Shown here piece by piece: positions 5,351 through 64,000 of a stretch of 64,000 bases of DNA. The notes under the pieces are model-generated. The model ran no database searches. It was given only the letters and a program-made list of their open reading frames with translations, and had not been told where the DNA came from. A program made the position numbers and the translations under genes. How positions within the stretch are numbered: the first letter of the stretch is position 1; every line of letters starts with the position of its first letter. The stretch is from Patescibacteria group bacterium (GTDB lineage Bacteria; Patescibacteriota; Minisyncoccia; Phycocordibacterales; Phycocordibacteraceae): assembly GCA_013815345.1 (NCBI GenBank), contig JACDGK010000003.1, forward strand, positions 18,897 through 82,896, written 5' to 3'.

Positions 5351-5956
5351 ATGCAAAACGTTATTACTCCCATAAAAACCGAGGAGCGGACTAAGCTCGG
5401 CATCCGTCCGGGTGACACCGTGCGCGTCCACCAGAAAATCATAGAAAAAGGCAAGACCCGCATTCAGATATTCGAAGGTCTCGTGCTCGCGGTCAAGCAC
5501 GGTACTGAGGCAGGTGCGACCTTCACGGTACGCGCTACGCTTTCAGGCGTCGGTGTCGAGAAGATTTTCCCGCTCTACGCGTCATTTATCGAAAAAATTG
5601 AGATTACCCGCCGTTCGAAAGTTCGCCGCGCAAAGCTTTACTTCATCCGCGAAAAAGTCGCTCGTGAAGTACGTCGCCAGCTTCGCAATATGCGTATGGT
5701 TACTATTTCTTCTGACGATTTTGCTGCAGAAGAAGAAGTTGTAACGACTACTGAAGTCGAAGAGTCTCCTGCCGGAAGCGTTGCAGAAGGAGTCGAACCA
5801 GTAGTAGCGGTTGAAGAGGAACTTGAGACAAAAGACCCAGCTCAGCCAGGTGAACTCGTCGCGGAAGCAGAAGAATCAGCTGCAGAACCCATTTCAGTCG
5901 ATGCGAACCCCGATGTTGAAGCACCTCTCGTCGAGGAACCTCCAAAAGAAGGATAA
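5351..5956 (+). CDS. rplS: Ribosomal protein L19 with an ~85 aa acidic C-terminal extension
   Basis: The N-terminal ~115 aa match L19 ([27 protein letters not shown]...RRAKLYFIR). The C-terminus is an E/V/A-rich tail. Confidence 0.85.
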
Positions 5957-5977
5957 ATACTTTTAAGTAAGTGATAA

Positions 5978-6008
5978 ATTCAGGCCGATTTTAATCGGCC
6001 TTTATTTT
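5978..6008 (+). terminator. Rho-independent terminator after rplS
   Basis: Hairpin CAGGCCGATT-tta-AATCGGCCT followed by TTTATTTTTATTT. Confidence 0.6.
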
Positions 6009-6011
6009 TAT

Positions 6012-6719
6012 TTGAATTTACTTTGTCATACTGGCCGCATGGGAACTCCCGGAAGAAAACCAAGTAGAAAGGAGGAAATACAATGGTCTTCTAATATTGC
6101 ATACGCGGTAGGACTTATTGCGACGGATGGTTGTCTATCTGGAAATGGCAAAAATATTGATTTAACATCTAAGGACCGAGAACAACTTGAGAATTTCCTA
6201 ATATGTATAGAAAAAAATGTTCCAATTAGCACAAAAGCTTCGAGTTTCGCACTAAAACCAATAACACACGTTCAGTTCAGTGACGTCGTCTTGTATCGAT
6301 TTTTTCTGTCAGTTGGACTTACACCTCGCAAATCACTCACTATCGGAGCACTTAAGGTCCCGGATGAATATTTCTTCGATTTTTTACGAGGTTCTTATGA
6401 TGGAGATGGATGTTTCTATAGTTACTTTGACCCGAGATGGAAAAGCAGTTTTATGTTCTATTTAAGTTTTACTTCAGCAAGTCCCAAACATATCTTATGG
6501 CTTCGAGCGACCATTGTTCGACTTTGTTCAGTGAAGGGTCACGTAACACAAGTTGGGAAAAGAACACTCATGACAAATCTTCGGTACGCAAAGAAAGAAG
6601 CAACTATTGTACTATCACATATGTACCCTTCTTCCTCGGTACTCTGCTTAACTCGAAAGAGATTGAAAATAATTCGCGCACTCGGTATAGTTGGAATGTC
6701 GCTAGTACAAACTAGTTAA
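6012..6719 (+). CDS. Free-standing double-motif LAGLIDADG homing endonuclease
   Basis: Has two LAGLIDADG motifs, YAVGLIATDGCL and LRGSYDGDGCF. Length is 235 aa. GC is low (~37%) relative to neighbours. The real start may be at Met 6039. The stop is 2 nt before tRNA-Leu. Confidence 0.8.
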   Translation: MNLLCHTGRMGTPGRKPSRKEEIQWSSNIAYAVGLIATDGCLSGNGKNIDLTSKDREQLENFLICIEKNVPISTKASSFALKPITHVQFSDVVLYRFFLSVGLTPRKSLTIGALKVPDEYFFDFLRGSYDGDGCFYSYFDPRWKSSFMFYLSFTSASPKHILWLRATIVRLCSVKGHVTQVGKRTLMTNLRYAKKEATIVLSHMYPSSSVLCLTRKRLKIIRALGIVGMSLVQTS

Positions 6720-6720
6720 A

Positions 6721-6807
6721 GCCCGGGTGTTGAAATTGGTAGACATTAGTCCTTGAGGTGGACTAGCCCTTATGGGCGTGCAGGTTCGAGTCCTGTCCCG
6801 GGCACCA
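6721..6807 (+). tRNA. tRNA-Leu (anticodon GAG), class II, CCA encoded
   Basis: Acceptor GCCCGGG/CCCGGGC. The anticodon stem is AGTCC/GGACT with loop TTGAGGT, giving GAG. The variable arm is long, the T-arm is GCAGGTTCGAGTCCTGT, and the 3' end is ACCA. Confidence 0.85.
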
Positions 6808-47438: not shown

Positions 47439-48303
47439 CTTTCTACGTGTCTACGACCAAAAAACCAACCAAAAAACGGAGCGGATAGGCCGTATGGCCT
47501 CCTGCGCGCAAGCGCCTGAACCGCCCCGCAAGGGGTGTTTTTAATTCGGAGAATTAAAAACCCCAAGGAAGGCGTTTTGCAAAATAAACATTGGAAGAGT
47601 AGACACTGACCTTTGACAGACGAATACGCATAAAAAGGTAAATCAACGCCATGATGTGAAAGCATCGTGGTAATGAAATTGCATAGTTATATGAAAATAT
47701 AACTTGCACATGAAGGTAACACTTTATGTGCTCACAAAAATTGTGGTGTTCAGGTTTCCGCACAGGAAACGTGAAGGGTATACGGTGGATGCCTTGGCTT
47801 ATGCATGCGATGAAGGACGTGACTAATCTGCGAAATTCTTCGGGGAGGCGATTTGTAGCCTTTGATCCGGAGGTGTCCGAATGGGGAAACCCGATCTGTA
47901 TAGATCATCTTTCTGTTTATCAGAAAGAAGCGAACCTGGGGAAGTGAAACATCTCAGTACCCAGAGGAATAGAAAACAACAGCGAGTTGTTTTCTGTCTG
48001 CTCGATGCTTCGAGCGGATGGAAAACAACTCTCGTGATTCCCTAAGTAGCGGCGAGCGAAACGGGAGAAGCCCAAACCAGATACTTCGGTATGTGGGGTT
48101 GTAAGACGGAAGTACCGTACTTGTACGGCAAGAGTTACAAAAGATATATATAACGGAAGCTGCTGGGAAGCAGCGCCCTAGAGGGTAATGGCCCCGTACG
48201 TGAAATGTAGATCTCTCTTGTGCTTCTGTTCTTGAGTAGTTCGAGACATGAATAGCTCGGATGAATCTGCCGGAACTAACCGGTAAGGCTAAATACTGCA
48301 TAA

Positions 48304-48349
<46 letters not shown>

Positions 48350-48920
48350 GAAAGGGGAGTGAAATAGAACTGAAACCGTATACTTACAAAGGGTTATGGG
48401 GGGCGTTCGCGTCCTTTATAGCGTGCCTATTGAAGAATGAGCCTGCGAGTGTATGTATGTTGCTTGGCTAAGTCCGTTATGGGACGAAGCCCTAGGGAAA
48501 CCGAGTGTTAATAGCGCGTCCGTATCATACATACGACCCGAAGCCGGGTGAGCTTACCATGGACAGGTTGAAGTTTGTCGAAAGACAGATGGAGGACCGA
48601 ACCCGTACGTCGTACAACGCGTTGGGATGATCTGTGGTAAGGAGTGAAAAGCTAATCGAACCCGGTAATAGCTGGTTCTCTCTGAAACATCTTTTGGGAT
48701 GGCGTCGTGTGATCCTTCCGGGGGTAGAGCACTGGAAGGGGTAAACAGGGAGAAATCTCGTTACTCCTATCAACCTCCGAATACCGGAAATTACAACACG
48801 GCAGTTAGACCATGGGGGCGAAGCTCCATTGGTCAAAAGGGGAAGAGCCCGGATCGTCAGTTAAGGCCCCTAAATCGACACTGAGTACAACTTAAGGAAG
48901 TGAGGATCCTTCGACAATGA

Positions 48921-48952
<32 letters not shown>

Positions 48953-50610
48953 GATAGCGTAACAGCTCACTCATCGAGGGTCCTTGCGCCGAAGATAATC
49001 GGGGTTAAGTGTCGTGCCGAAGCTACGGGTTTGTGCACTTCATAGAGGAGGATGATTTTTTCATATCTTCTGTGAAGTGCACAAGCGGTAAGAGAGCGTT
49101 CCGTTCTGCGATGAAGGAAAAGGGGTGACCCATTCTGGAGCGTACGGAAGTGAGAATGCAGGTACAAGTAACCACAATGCGGGTGAGAACCCCGCACGTC
49201 GAAAGATCAAGGTTTCCTCAGCTATGGTGATCAACTGAGGGTTAGTCGGGCCTAAGGGGATGGTGAAAACCGCACCCGATGGACACAGGGTTAATATTCC
49301 CTGACCGTTTGCACATGCGATGGAGAGACGGACTGCTGTATGTAGTGCCCATTATTGGATTTGGGTCAGTGCCGTGAGGGGGTGTCTTAGGTAAATCCGG
49401 GACGCATATACTCCGAGCGGAAAAGCAACATCCTTCTACGGAGGGGTGGAGACTACGGAGCGCGGTTCCAAGAAAATCTTCTAAGCTTCAGTGTGTAACG
49501 TCCGTACCGCAAACCGACACAGGTGATCAGCTCGAGTAGAGTAAGACGAACGAGTGAGAGGTCCTCAAGGAACTCGGCAAAATAGCGGCCGTAAGTTAGC
49601 GATAAGGCCTGCCCCTCTCCGGAGGGGCCGCAGCGAAAGATTTTCTGGCAACTGTTTACCAAAAACACAGCTCCCTGCGAACTCGTAAGAGGATGTATAG
49701 GGGGTGACGCCTGACCAATGCCGGAAGGTCAAGCAGGGACGGTACATTGATTTCGATTGATGTGCTAGGCCCTATAAGCCCCGGTGAATGTCGGCGATAA
49801 CTATAATCGTCCTAAGGTTCTGGGTTGGAGCAATCCTGCCCAGAACGGATTGGGACGATTATAGGAGACCGTAAACAGCTCTGAGAAGAGTACGTCATTA
49901 ATAGCTACCTCTTTCTTTGGAAACAAAGATTGAATCCGCGACTCATATGAGAGGCCATACGTCGTGCACCATGCAAATGGTTGAAGATATGGTCCTTCTT
50001 GGAGGAATAGAAGAGCGTAATTCCTTGTCTGGTAAGTTCAGACGTGCACGAATGGCGTAATGACTGGAAAACTGTCTCGAGGACTCGCTCGGTGAAAATG
50101 CAATACCGGTGAAGATGCCGGTTACCTGTAGTTAGACGAAAAGACCCCAGGAGCTTTACTACAGCTTCGTATTGGGGCTGCGTGGTGCCTGCGTAGAATA
50201 GGTGGGAGGCTTTGAAGCATTCCTTTCGGGGAGTGTGGAGCCGCCAGTGAAATACCACTCTTGCATTGTGCAGTCTCTAACCCTCGTAAGAACTACGAGG
50301 GGACCGTGCGTGGCGGGTAGTTTTGGTGGGGCGCTATCCTCCTAAAAAGTAACGGAGGAGTCTATTAAGGTTGGCTAGGCGCGAATGGAAACCGTGCCGA
50401 TAGTGTAATGGCAGAAGCCAGCTTAACTGCAAGACGTACATGTCGAGCAGATGCGAAAGCAGAGCATAGTGATCCGATGGTTCGCCTTAGATGCGGCCAG
50501 AGCTCAACGGATAAAAGTTACCCTGGGGATAACAGGCTAGTTCCGCCCAAGCGTCCATAGCGACGGCGGAGTTCGGCACCTCGATGTCGGCTCACCTTAG
50601 CGCGGGGCTG

Positions 50611-51371
50611 GAGAAAACATACCTTCTCTCCTCATTGGAAACGATGAGGTAATTAAACAAGCTCAAAACGGTGAAGGCTGACTTATGCAAGCGACCTTAT
50701 GTTTCGGAGGTCCCAGGTTTAGTGTTAAACTTGATGTATGAGAGCTAACGCCGTGGGAAAGAAGTGTTCTGAAGTAGAGCGAGCATATATAGCTGGATTT
50801 TTGGATGCCGATGGAGCCATTATGGCTCTTATCGAACCGCATTCAGAAAAACAGTATAAGTTTCGAGTTCGCGTTGCGATTAAAATAACGCAACAGGACA
50901 GGAAAGTCTTAGATTGGATACGTACAGTACTTGCGGTTGGAATCGTTCGTGCAAATCGCGCTGGCACTAGTCGCCAGACGTTTGATCTGCACATTCGTGA
51001 TCAAGCGCACGTACAGAAAATTCTGACAAGTCTCTTACCATTTATCCGTGTCAAAAAACGACAAGCAGAAATGGCTCTTGAGATTGTGAATTCAAAAATC
51101 ATCACGTCAGAAGATCTACTCAAAAATGCCCGTATCGCCGACGCTTTGTCGCAGTTGAACGTTCGGTCCAAGAATCGGCGTAAAAACTTTGTGGCAAAGG
51201 TCGAAGAATATCTCTCCCCTAACGACTGAGCACGATTCTTTTGGGAATCGTGCGAGATATGCCCACTGTAGTGGGGTATAACACGGCTTGCACCTAAAAC
51301 TGTAATGGTGACATTACAAACATGGTGATGGAATAGTCTGATACTTGTCGGAAGGCAAGAACAACAAAGAA
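50611..51371 (+). mobile_element. Group I intron 1 in 23S (domain V, near E. coli ~2500) carrying a LAGLIDADG ORF; boundaries +/-6 nt
   Basis: Exon homology stops after ..GTCGGCTCACCTTAGCGCGGGGCT and resumes at ..GAGGTCCCAAGCGTTTGGCTGTTCGCC. ~760 nt lie between them. Confidence 0.6.
50738..51229 (+). CDS. Intron-encoded single-motif LAGLIDADG homing endonuclease (I-CreI-like homodimer type)
   Basis: 163 aa. The motif is YIAGFLDADGAI. It is embedded in 23S intron 1. Confidence 0.8.
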   Translation: MRANAVGKKCSEVERAYIAGFLDADGAIMALIEPHSEKQYKFRVRVAIKITQQDRKVLDWIRTVLAVGIVRANRAGTSRQTFDLHIRDQAHVQKILTSLLPFIRVKKRQAEMALEIVNSKIITSEDLLKNARIADALSQLNVRSKNRRKNFVAKVEEYLSPND

Positions 51372-51434
51372 TTGAGGTCCCAAGCGTTTGGCTGTTCGCC
51401 AATTAAAAAGGTACGCGAGCTGGGTTCAGACCGT

Positions 51435-51780
51435 GTAGGAATAGAGTCGCAGAATTTATTTTGCGGAATCGATTCTTACACCGTCTGAATCCCTTTGAGA
51501 TATCTGTTTATCAGAACTTAATAAAGTGCGAAGTGAATGTCTTTTCGTCTATGAAATTATGATAGAACCAACAACCATCACGGCGATGTGCTACAGGAAT
51601 GTAGTACGTACCATCAACTAATATCGGTGAAACCCTCCCCATTAATTTGGCGGGCAACACCGAGGGAAGCTGAGAAAATCTCGGTACCCGTAGAGACTAC
51701 ACGTTGATCATCCGACCATTTAATTTATTTGAGGATGAAGATATAGTCCGACCCTCCGAGTAATCGAAGTTAACAAAGTG
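51435..51780 (+). mobile_element. Group I intron 2 in 23S (ORF-less, 346 nt, near the A-loop)
   Basis: The 5' exon ends ..GGGTTCAGACCGT (terminal U). The 3' exon resumes CGTGAGACAGGTTGGTCTCCTATC, and the preceding intron nucleotide is G. The E. coli equivalent is the contiguous GAACGU|CGUGAGACAG. Confidence 0.6.
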
Positions 51781-52148
51781 CGTGAGACAGGTTGGTCTCC
51801 TATCTACTACAGGCGTTGATTCTTGAGGAGGGTTGCCCCTAGTACGAGAGGACCGGGGTGAACTGACCTCTGGTCTACCAGCTGTTTTGCCAAAAGCATC
51901 GCTGGGTAGCTATGTCGGGTCGGGATAACTGCTGAAAGCATATAAGCGGGAAGCCCACTCCAAGATTAGGAATCGTTATGAGACACCTTAAAGATTATGA
52001 GGTTGATAGGCTTTAGATGTACGCACAGTAATGTGTTCAGTCGAGAAGTACTAATATGTCCAGTTTTCTGTGCGGAATTCTGCATGGCACAATTTTTGTG
52101 TTCGCAATCCGTTTTATGCGTATTCGTTTTTGTACAAGGTACGCATGT

Positions 52149-52272
52149 ACCCAGAACGCTGGTGATTTATCGGAAGGGCCACACCCGTTCTCATTCCGAA
52201 CACGGCAGTTAAGCCTTCTTGAGCCGATGGTACTCGTAAGGGGAGAGTAGGTTGTCGCCAGCGTTCTGGGCA
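52149..52272 (+). rRNA. rrf: 5S rRNA
   Basis: The terminal helix is CCCAGAACGC..GCGTTCTGGG. Internal CCGAACACGGCAGTTAAG and GTACTCGTAAGGGGAGAGTAGG match 5S loops. Confidence 0.8.
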
Positions 52273-63012: not shown

Positions 63013-63152
63013 AGGTAATACCGCCCCCAAAAGGGGCTGGGGTTTTGTTTGCTCCGAGGAATAGTTTTGGAGCAAGTTCATTGACAACTACATAGTTCAA
63101 ATTAGACGAGAACCAAGAGAAGTGTTTTCTTGTGTTCCGCCTATTCTTAATG

Positions 63153-64000
<848 letters not shown>

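Follow-up and report, generated by a model that had tools for sequence, protein, structure and literature searches.

Introduction

Free-standing homing endonucleases of phages, such as Seg and Mob of phage T4, home without an intron (reviewed in PMC3984707), and one of them, SegB, is located in the T4 tRNA gene cluster (PMC13096335). Among bacteria of the candidate phyla radiation (CPR), LAGLIDADG genes have been described in insertion sequences of rRNA genes (PMC11270868). Here we describe a family of LAGLIDADG endonucleases encoded next to a tRNA gene, starting from a stretch of 64,000 nucleotides, hereafter the window, from a Patescibacteria group bacterium (assembly GCA_013815345.1, contig JACDGK010000003.1, positions 18,897 to 82,896 of the forward strand), in which a 226-residue, double-motif endonuclease is encoded at 6039-6719 on the forward strand, immediately ahead of the gene for tRNA-Leu(GAG). 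To our knowledge, free-standing LAGLIDADG endonucleases are uncommon in bacterial chromosomes. A literature search found no description of this family, nor of any free-standing LAGLIDADG endonuclease at a tRNA gene.

The likeness to T4 Seg and Mob is one of lifestyle: an intergenic position, a promoter of its own, presence in some genomes and absence from related ones, and an expected spread by break repair using flanking homology (PMC3984707). The T4 proteins, however, are phage enzymes of the GIY-YIG or HNH types, while the window family is a LAGLIDADG family of cellular Patescibacteria genomes; unlike Seg and Mob, it is tied to a single tRNA species, is accompanied by a scar made of a tRNA fragment, and appears to hold the promoter of its neighbor inside its own open reading frame (ORF). 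The LAGLIDADG genes of CPR rRNA insertions belong to the same phylum and superfamily and are likewise sporadic, and the window's own 23S rRNA gene has one, but the survey that describes them deals with rRNA genes, and a term search of its main text turned up no mention of tRNA or free-standing genes (PMC11270868). In architecture, the window protein resembles I-Tsp061I, I-DmoI, I-SceI and I-AniI, with two motifs in one chain of about 200-250 residues and an acidic residue closing each. These archaeal and organellar monomeric enzymes match its fold (Foldseek E-values down to 3e-10) at a sequence identity of 10-19%, but they are encoded by introns in rRNA or mitochondrial genes, whereas the window enzyme is free-standing in a bacterial chromosome beside a tRNA gene. 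It has, in addition, an N-terminal tail that is basic and, at the C-terminus, an extra helix whose DNA apparently doubles as a promoter. WhiA and the LAGLIDADG maturases also have the same fold. WhiA, which we take to be universal in its clades, to have lost its catalytic residues and to carry a helix-turn-helix (HTH) domain, differs from the window family, in which the distribution is sporadic, the catalytic Asp residues are retained and an HTH domain is lacking.

What is new is that a large family of Patescibacteria endonucleases is devoted to the tRNA-Leu(GAG) locus, is associated with a scar made of a tRNA fragment, and has a likely tRNA promoter in its coding sequence. The evidence below suggests that its members are probably long-lived, free-standing homing endonuclease cassettes, passed on mainly by vertical inheritance, with occasional lateral replacement and repeated loss.

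Results and Discussion

A large family with a fixed genomic home

A protein search with the window endonuclease returned 3081 homologs at E <=0.001, nearly all of them either unnamed or from Patescibacteria/Paceibacteria records, and a genome scan found the family encoded in at least 537 species-representative genomes. The existence of more than 3000 homologous protein clusters excludes a chance ORF. Identity to the window protein is 54-66% among the matches listed, with the nearest homolog at 66%. Loci were compared in a gene-selected sample, chosen for carrying the endonuclease and made up of the best 80 genome loci from those at least 537 genomes, plus the window. According to ARAGORN, tRNA-Leu(GAG) lies directly 3' of the endonuclease, on the same strand, in 75 of the 81 loci; the others meet a contig end or a mis-called tRNA, and none that can be evaluated contradicts the linkage. 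The gap between gene and tRNA has a median of 2 nt and ranges from -21 to +46 (70 loci within the -20 nt overlap window), while in five further loci the endonuclease overlaps the tRNA by up to 36 nt. On the other side, rplS is directly upstream in 72 of 80 loci, with a pseudouridine synthase gene before rplS in 60. The family is large, Patescibacteria-specific and at home at one fixed place, directly 5' of tRNA-Leu(GAG) and downstream of rplS.

The endonuclease of the window differs in composition from its surroundings, with a GC fraction of 0.389 in the ORF against 0.489 in the flanks; the deficit noted in the initial annotation (about 37% against 47%) is real. Across the family, the ORF averages 6.7 GC points below its flanks, and the offset is seen in nearly all of the 73 measurable loci, in hosts whose flanks range from 30 to 64% GC. 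Because the offset occurs whatever the GC content of the host, it is a trait of the family rather than a mark of recent arrival, and low GC was rejected as a sign of recent transfer.

Some contigs that carry the cassette bear labels from outside Paceibacteria (L010, L055, L060, L062, L066 and several Saccharibacteria-labelled loci). The labels, which include Gammaproteobacteria, Bdellovibrionales, Peregrinibacteria, Omnitrophica and Burkholderiales as well as Saccharibacteria, are probably errors of binning or labelling.

Presence, absence and decay at one site

To remove the selection bias of a sample collected by means of the gene itself, 80 metagenome loci were fetched via rplS. Nine of these carry the endonuclease, and one more (L103) shows only a scar, described below, before its contig ends, for a total of about 10 in 60. 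In 50 of the loci, rplS is followed by tRNA-Leu(GAG) with no endonuclease between them, across a spacer with a median length of 64 nt. Various degrees of degeneration are found as well. One copy is frameshifted (L083), one locus retains just the last 32 codons of the gene (L129), two have shorter C-terminal remnants (L088 and L082), and two keep the end of the scar, CTTGAGGT, together with the promoter described below, everything between having been deleted (L137 and L141). The flanking synteny, from rplS through tRNA-His, is identical at occupied and empty loci. Presence/absence polymorphism at one fixed site, accompanied by degenerate copies, is the pattern by which a mobile element is recognized, and it is the pattern found here; occupied, empty, remnant and frameshifted forms are as expected from the life cycle of a homing endonuclease.

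These results bear on the initial annotation, which had suggested recent mobility or domestication and had proposed that the interval between rplS and tRNA-Leu be compared in related genomes for presence or absence of the gene. Presence proved variable, and the gene occurs in all relatives only if the loci are selected for the gene. Most rplS-sampled relatives lack it, which supports mobility over evolutionary time, but the suggestion that the window copy moved recently is not supported: its nearest homolog is no closer than 66%, the GC deficit is family-wide, and the scar has been lost in the window's clade. Nor did domestication fare better, as the gene is sporadic, decaying, and deleted in relatives. 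An argument from universally conserved synteny to domestication, which had been drawn from the gene-selected loci, was dropped once the rplS sample showed most loci to be without the gene.

Many empty sites (for example L084, L089, L093, L098, L105, L118, L124 and L142) end in CACCT immediately before position +1 of the tRNA. This pentamer could pair with AGGTG, its complement at tRNA positions 5-9. In most occupied loci, the corresponding end is TAAT.

Gene call, fold and active site of the window protein

The maximal ORF runs from a TTG at 6012 to 6719 and would encode 235 residues, as the initial annotation reported, but the ATG at 6039 is the likely start, since both the family N-terminus, MGxRGPKPKR, and a database protein (P0001) that is 226 residues long and 100% identical to the window endonuclease fit it. 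Both of the LAGLIDADG motifs that had been reported were located, GLIATDGCL at 6111-6137 (residues 25-33) and LRGSYDGDGCF at 6384-6416 (residues 116-126). The proposed hidden Markov model (HMM) search succeeded, with a score of 28.5 bits to Pfam model LAGLIDADG_3 against a cut-off of 22.5, although the hit covers only motif 1 and the first domain; the second domain was not detected by Pfam models, and an NCBIfam search with the window protein gave no meaningful match. PHROG 4645, named "endonuclease", matches the window protein with E=4e-21, and the closest sequence match in PDB is I-Tsp061I (E=0.004).

An AlphaFold2 model built on 120 homologs has a predicted local distance difference test score (pLDDT) of 94 and a predicted template modelling score (pTM) of 0.90. 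It has two halves of alpha-beta-beta-alpha-beta-beta-alpha topology; each opens with a LAGLIDADG helix (residues 18-29 and 109-123), which four strands follow, and an extra C-terminal helix occupies residues 205-217. A Foldseek search of PDB places I-Tsp061I at the top (E=3.4e-10, TM 0.67/0.73), followed by intein endonucleases, I-AniI, I-DmoI and I-SceI; WhiA is also among the matches. These matches to monomeric enzymes, and the two halves of the model, bear out the monomeric double-motif architecture that had been proposed. In the alignment of 120 sequences, motif 1 has an invariant G31 and a D30 conserved to at least 90%, while R117, G118, D121, G122, D123 and G124 of motif 2 are all invariant. 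The conserved acidic residues that close the two motifs, D30 and D123, are both kept in the window protein, so that a lack of catalytic residues, which would have spoken against an endonuclease, does not apply. Overall, the window protein retains 66 of the 68 positions conserved at 90% or more, a mid-range rank within the family. The basic N-terminal tail and the basic C-terminal helix are also conserved in the family, and neither domain searches nor the model revealed an additional HTH or RNA-binding domain in the window protein. By its predicted fold and its active site, the protein is a monomeric, two-motif LAGLIDADG homing endonuclease; the gene appears intact, and site-specific DNA cleavage, which in enzymes of this type acts on a target of about 20 bp, is its predicted function.

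In one relative (L017, 4001-4030), codon 5 of the endonuclease is TGA where the family consensus has Gly. This could represent a fresh nonsense mutation, a sequencing error, or a TGA read as Gly.

Selection and inheritance

Wherever synonymous divergence is measurable, the dN/dS ratio (omega) of the endonuclease lies between 0.05 and 0.15, which places intact copies under purifying selection. Bootstrapped neighbor-joining trees were constructed for the endonuclease and, from rplS plus the pseudouridine synthase gene, for the hosts. Many endonuclease clades equal host clades. The clearest conflict involves L016, whose endonuclease groups with those of L033 and L077 at 92% bootstrap support, a grouping at odds with host clades that have 99-100% support; there are also a few weaker conflicts. 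Certain close host pairs are also discordant in rate. Between L002 and L050 the endonuclease dN is 0.42 for an rplS dS of 0.62, and between L021 and L045 the endonuclease dS reaches 1.37 where the neighboring genes have 0.51 and 0.59. Divergence of the endonuclease beyond that of its neighbors in such pairs fits replacement by another endonuclease lineage. As judged from the trees, inheritance appears mostly vertical, and the L016 conflict, well supported by bootstrap, would point to at least one lateral replacement.

Over all pairs, endonuclease and host identities correlate weakly (Spearman 0.13-0.20). The use of this weak correlation as proof of rampant transfer was downgraded, since endonuclease identity levels off near 55% and, in binned pairs, increases along with that of the hosts.

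The tRNA-Leu(GAG) gene itself varies to a degree unusual for a tRNA gene. In some pairs of hosts with L19 proteins 86-99% identical (for example L046/L088, L008/L124 and L108/L106), it differs at 13-17 of the first 45 positions, and this rapid change is uncorrelated with endonuclease lineage.

A tRNA-fragment scar upstream of the endonuclease

Most occupied loci have the sequence AATTGGTAGACGCTA-N4-CTTGAGGT within the 0-45 nt before the endonuclease ATG. The match to tRNA-Leu(GAG) begins in the D-loop, at about nt 14, and extends to nt 38, where the anticodon loop ends, so that the anticodon GAG is part of it. In 33 loci a single copy of the exact core, GGTAKACGCTA-N4-CTTGAG, is present, always on the strand of the gene and just upstream of the endonuclease; confirmed empty sites never contain it. 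Examples of the scar are L046 3977-3998 and L053 3963-3989, and about 55 other occupied loci are alike. Many scars have in common a one-base difference from functional tRNAs, and they lie at a constant distance after the rplS terminator, which suggests a single founding event. We infer that the founding insertion struck a tRNA-Leu(GAG) gene at about position 38/39. Part of the scar seems to have been reused as the promoter region of the endonuclease itself.

Expression signals and a likely promoter inside the coding sequence

In 45 of the 73 family loci, a hexamer resembling a -10 box stops precisely 6 nt short of the ATG, often in the extended form TGATATAAT; its counterpart in the window is CATACT at 6027-6032 (forward strand), a putative promoter element. 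No Shine-Dalgarno sequence occurs at a functional distance from the endonuclease ATG. Given the position of the hexamer and the lack of a usable Shine-Dalgarno sequence, the mRNA would be leaderless.

A second, sigma-70-like element, TTGAAA-17-TATAGT, lies at 6663-6691 on the forward strand, within the last 25 codons of the endonuclease gene (peptide RKRLKI..LGIVG), and faces tRNA-Leu. It agrees with the consensus at 10 of 12 positions, is the sole exact match to its pattern in the window, and has an equivalent in about 45 of 75 loci, where the -10 box falls 16-47 nt ahead of the tRNA. TTG encodes the Leu of RKR-L-KI in 82% of the cases in which that residue is Leu, against 22% elsewhere in the ORF, and ATA encodes the Ile of (R/G)-I-VG in 93% of cases, against 38% elsewhere, a codon bias at both hexamers that shows constraint at the level of DNA. 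Empty sites with remnants keep exactly the segment with this embedded promoter, while naive empty sites have a different one, TTGAAn-17-GCATAAT. On these sequence features, the embedded element is likely to be the promoter of tRNA-Leu(GAG).

Between the embedded -10 box and the tRNA of the window, a short hairpin, GCTAGT-ACAA-ACTAGT, lies at 6701-6716 on the forward strand, overlapping the last codons. Scored as a single-sequence fold, as were all leader hairpins, it has a minimum free energy of -5.2 kcal/mol and z = -2.3; other loci have hairpins of different sequence at the same place, with a mean z of -1.3. RNAalifold found no consensus structure for the tRNA leader, hairpin lengths differing between loci. 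A further motif, TTGACA-N3-4-TAAT, 13 to 8 nt before tRNA +1, recurs in many loci (for example L012, L016, L038 and L065). It occurs in differing frames, in some loci coding for L-T-K-stop and in others including the TGA stop, and it sometimes forms the 3' arm of the leader hairpin.

Weighing the explanations

Several observations weigh against the interpretation of a homing cassette. The scar is missing from the window, where the interval 5957-6038 contains no match even with three mismatches allowed, and it is not recognizable in the rest of the window's host clade either (L001, L002, L004, L006, L019, L050 and L051). The resident tRNA-Leu(GAG) is intact, so an enzyme still able to recognize the anticodon-stem region would cleave the genome that encodes it. 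Comparisons of occupied and empty loci yielded no target site. In the raw counts, tRNAs within two edits of the scar were found at 2 of 81 occupied against 16 of 50 empty loci (Fisher p=3e-6), but the contrast vanishes once every occupied locus is set against its closest empty relative (15 vs 18), and no tRNA position has a fixed difference between occupied and empty loci; resistance substitutions in resident tRNAs were rejected on these grounds. The tRNA also does not co-vary with the endonuclease (Mantel correlation 0.03, not significant), and co-conversion, in which the tRNA would travel with the endonuclease, was rejected on that result. Transfer is rare, because most endonuclease clades match host clades, and the weak correlation between endonuclease and host identities is largely explained by saturation. 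A search for occupied and empty alleles close enough to show homing directly found no same-species pair; the best pairs are about 81-92% identical in rplS DNA. Finally, the window copy deviates at two nearly invariant positions, R38K and H39N, both in a predicted DNA-contacting hairpin.

That last point, with the scarless state of the window's host clade, invites the view of the window copy as an inactive passenger: a fixed, immobile relic, inherited vertically and slowly decaying, with an ORF that stays open solely because its 3' end is the tRNA promoter. The distance of 66% to the nearest homolog would fit as well, as would the finding that endonucleases within the window's clade are 54-60% identical, like random pairs from the family, despite the closeness of their hosts. 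However, the ORF is full-length and retains nearly all conserved positions, both catalytic Asp residues included; measurable values of omega in the family are all well under 1; and the promoter cannot keep the whole ORF open, because its constraint spans only about 30 of 681 nt. We consider a passenger unlikely. Somewhat less likely again is a domesticated LAGLIDADG protein, selected for a host role, such as binding the tRNA-Leu(GAG) promoter or acting on the tRNA-Leu precursor, with that role rather than homing accounting for conservation. Strict linkage to one tRNA gene, strong purifying selection, the match of many endonuclease clades to host clades, the conservation of the basic tail and of the basic helix at the C-terminus, and the location of the promoter within the ORF would all be expected of such a protein. 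A host function is difficult to reconcile with the roughly five-sixths of rplS-sampled relatives that lack the gene, several of which have deleted or frameshifted it yet keep the tRNA; and, going by general knowledge of WhiA and some maturases, a domesticated protein might have lost the catalytic Asp residues that are conserved here, or acquired an HTH or RNA-binding domain that is missing here. Being sporadic and retaining its catalytic residues, the family does not look domesticated.

The end of the scar at the anticodon loop, the classic position of tRNA introns, together with the frequent use of tRNA genes as integration sites, raises one more scenario, in which the gene is the remnant of an endonuclease encoded by a group I intron in tRNA-Leu, or of an integrase-type island that targeted the tRNA. 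This is highly improbable. An intron is contradicted by the uninterrupted tRNA and by Rfam searches of the window and of five occupied loci, none of which revealed one; the initial annotation had likewise called the gene free-standing and outside any intron or rRNA context. Nor is the element an integrase island: the insert measures only about 750 bp and holds a single ORF, with rplS and the tRNA as its neighbors and no integrase. For either origin, the sameness of the flanks in occupied and empty loci is a further difficulty.

A proposed mechanism and its implications

A long-lived homing cassette remains the reading that we favor, and its history may be pictured as follows. The founding insertion would have entered a tRNA-Leu(GAG) gene near the site marked by the end of the scar. 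The cassette would then have homed into empty rplS-tRNA-Leu alleles through the repair of double-strand breaks, DNA uptake probably coming first, and thereafter been inherited vertically until an eventual frameshift or deletion. Deletions would retain the 3' end because the promoter of the tRNA is there. The endonuclease would be translated from a leaderless mRNA, its -10 box 6 nt before the ATG, while transcription of the tRNA from the embedded promoter would make the insertion harmless to the host. More tentatively, and with doubt prevailing, this may be an undescribed lifestyle, in which a homing endonuclease invaded an essential tRNA gene at the anticodon loop and, rather than depend on an intron for its removal, supplied a substitute promoter and, at first, the 5' portion of the tRNA as well. 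If so, dual coding would make clean loss of the cassette costly and act as a retention device, and the basic C-terminal helix and the promoter encoded by its DNA could co-evolve or even interact.

The family displays every stage of the life of a homing endonuclease, from intact, through frameshifted and truncated, to empty with or without scars, and so provides a natural system in which to study the persistence of elements in reduced, episymbiotic genomes that acquire DNA. With its likely promoter inside the coding sequence, the gene is a clear example of dual coding, and one whose codon signature can be measured. Family members could also provide new compact meganuclease scaffolds with a conserved natural target region. 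For annotation, the results matter because most genes of the family now carry the label "hypothetical protein".

Neighboring genes and other features of the window

The left neighbor of the endonuclease, conserved across the family, is rplS (5351-5956, forward strand; Pfam Ribosomal_L19, E=4.8e-31). Its product, ribosomal protein L19, has an acidic C-terminal extension of about 85 residues, rich in E, A and V, past the Pfam domain; the length of this extension differs among relatives. A terminator scan finds an intrinsic terminator for rplS on the forward strand at 5982-6011, comprising a hairpin at 5982-6001 and a T-run. The constant right neighbor is tRNA-Leu(GAG), with an encoded CCA, at 6721-6807 on the forward strand (ARAGORN; 42 bits to the Rfam tRNA model). 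The initial annotation was right to place the gene between the rplS terminator and this tRNA but overstated the final gap, which it put at 2 nt: the stop codon ends at 6719, leaving 1 nt. Within the endonuclease gene, at 6071-6094, an AGGAGG is followed after 6 nt by an out-of-frame ATG that opens an ORF of three codons (ATG GTC TTC TAA). This is probably a coincidence of the codons for KEE.

The second endonuclease of the window is encoded in the intron of the 23S rRNA gene, at 50738-51229, and is a single-motif LAGLIDADG_1 protein. It has no detectable sequence similarity to the endonuclease at tRNA-Leu, and the genome therefore carries two LAGLIDADG lineages, as had been surmised from the difference in type. 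Rfam matches to 23S rRNA come in pieces (47776-50100 and 50146-50527), and the 5S rRNA gene follows at 52158, all within the region 47776-52263. The 16S rRNA gene starts about 11 kb downstream of 5S (region 63146-64000), a departure from the usual 16S-23S-5S arrangement of rRNA genes.

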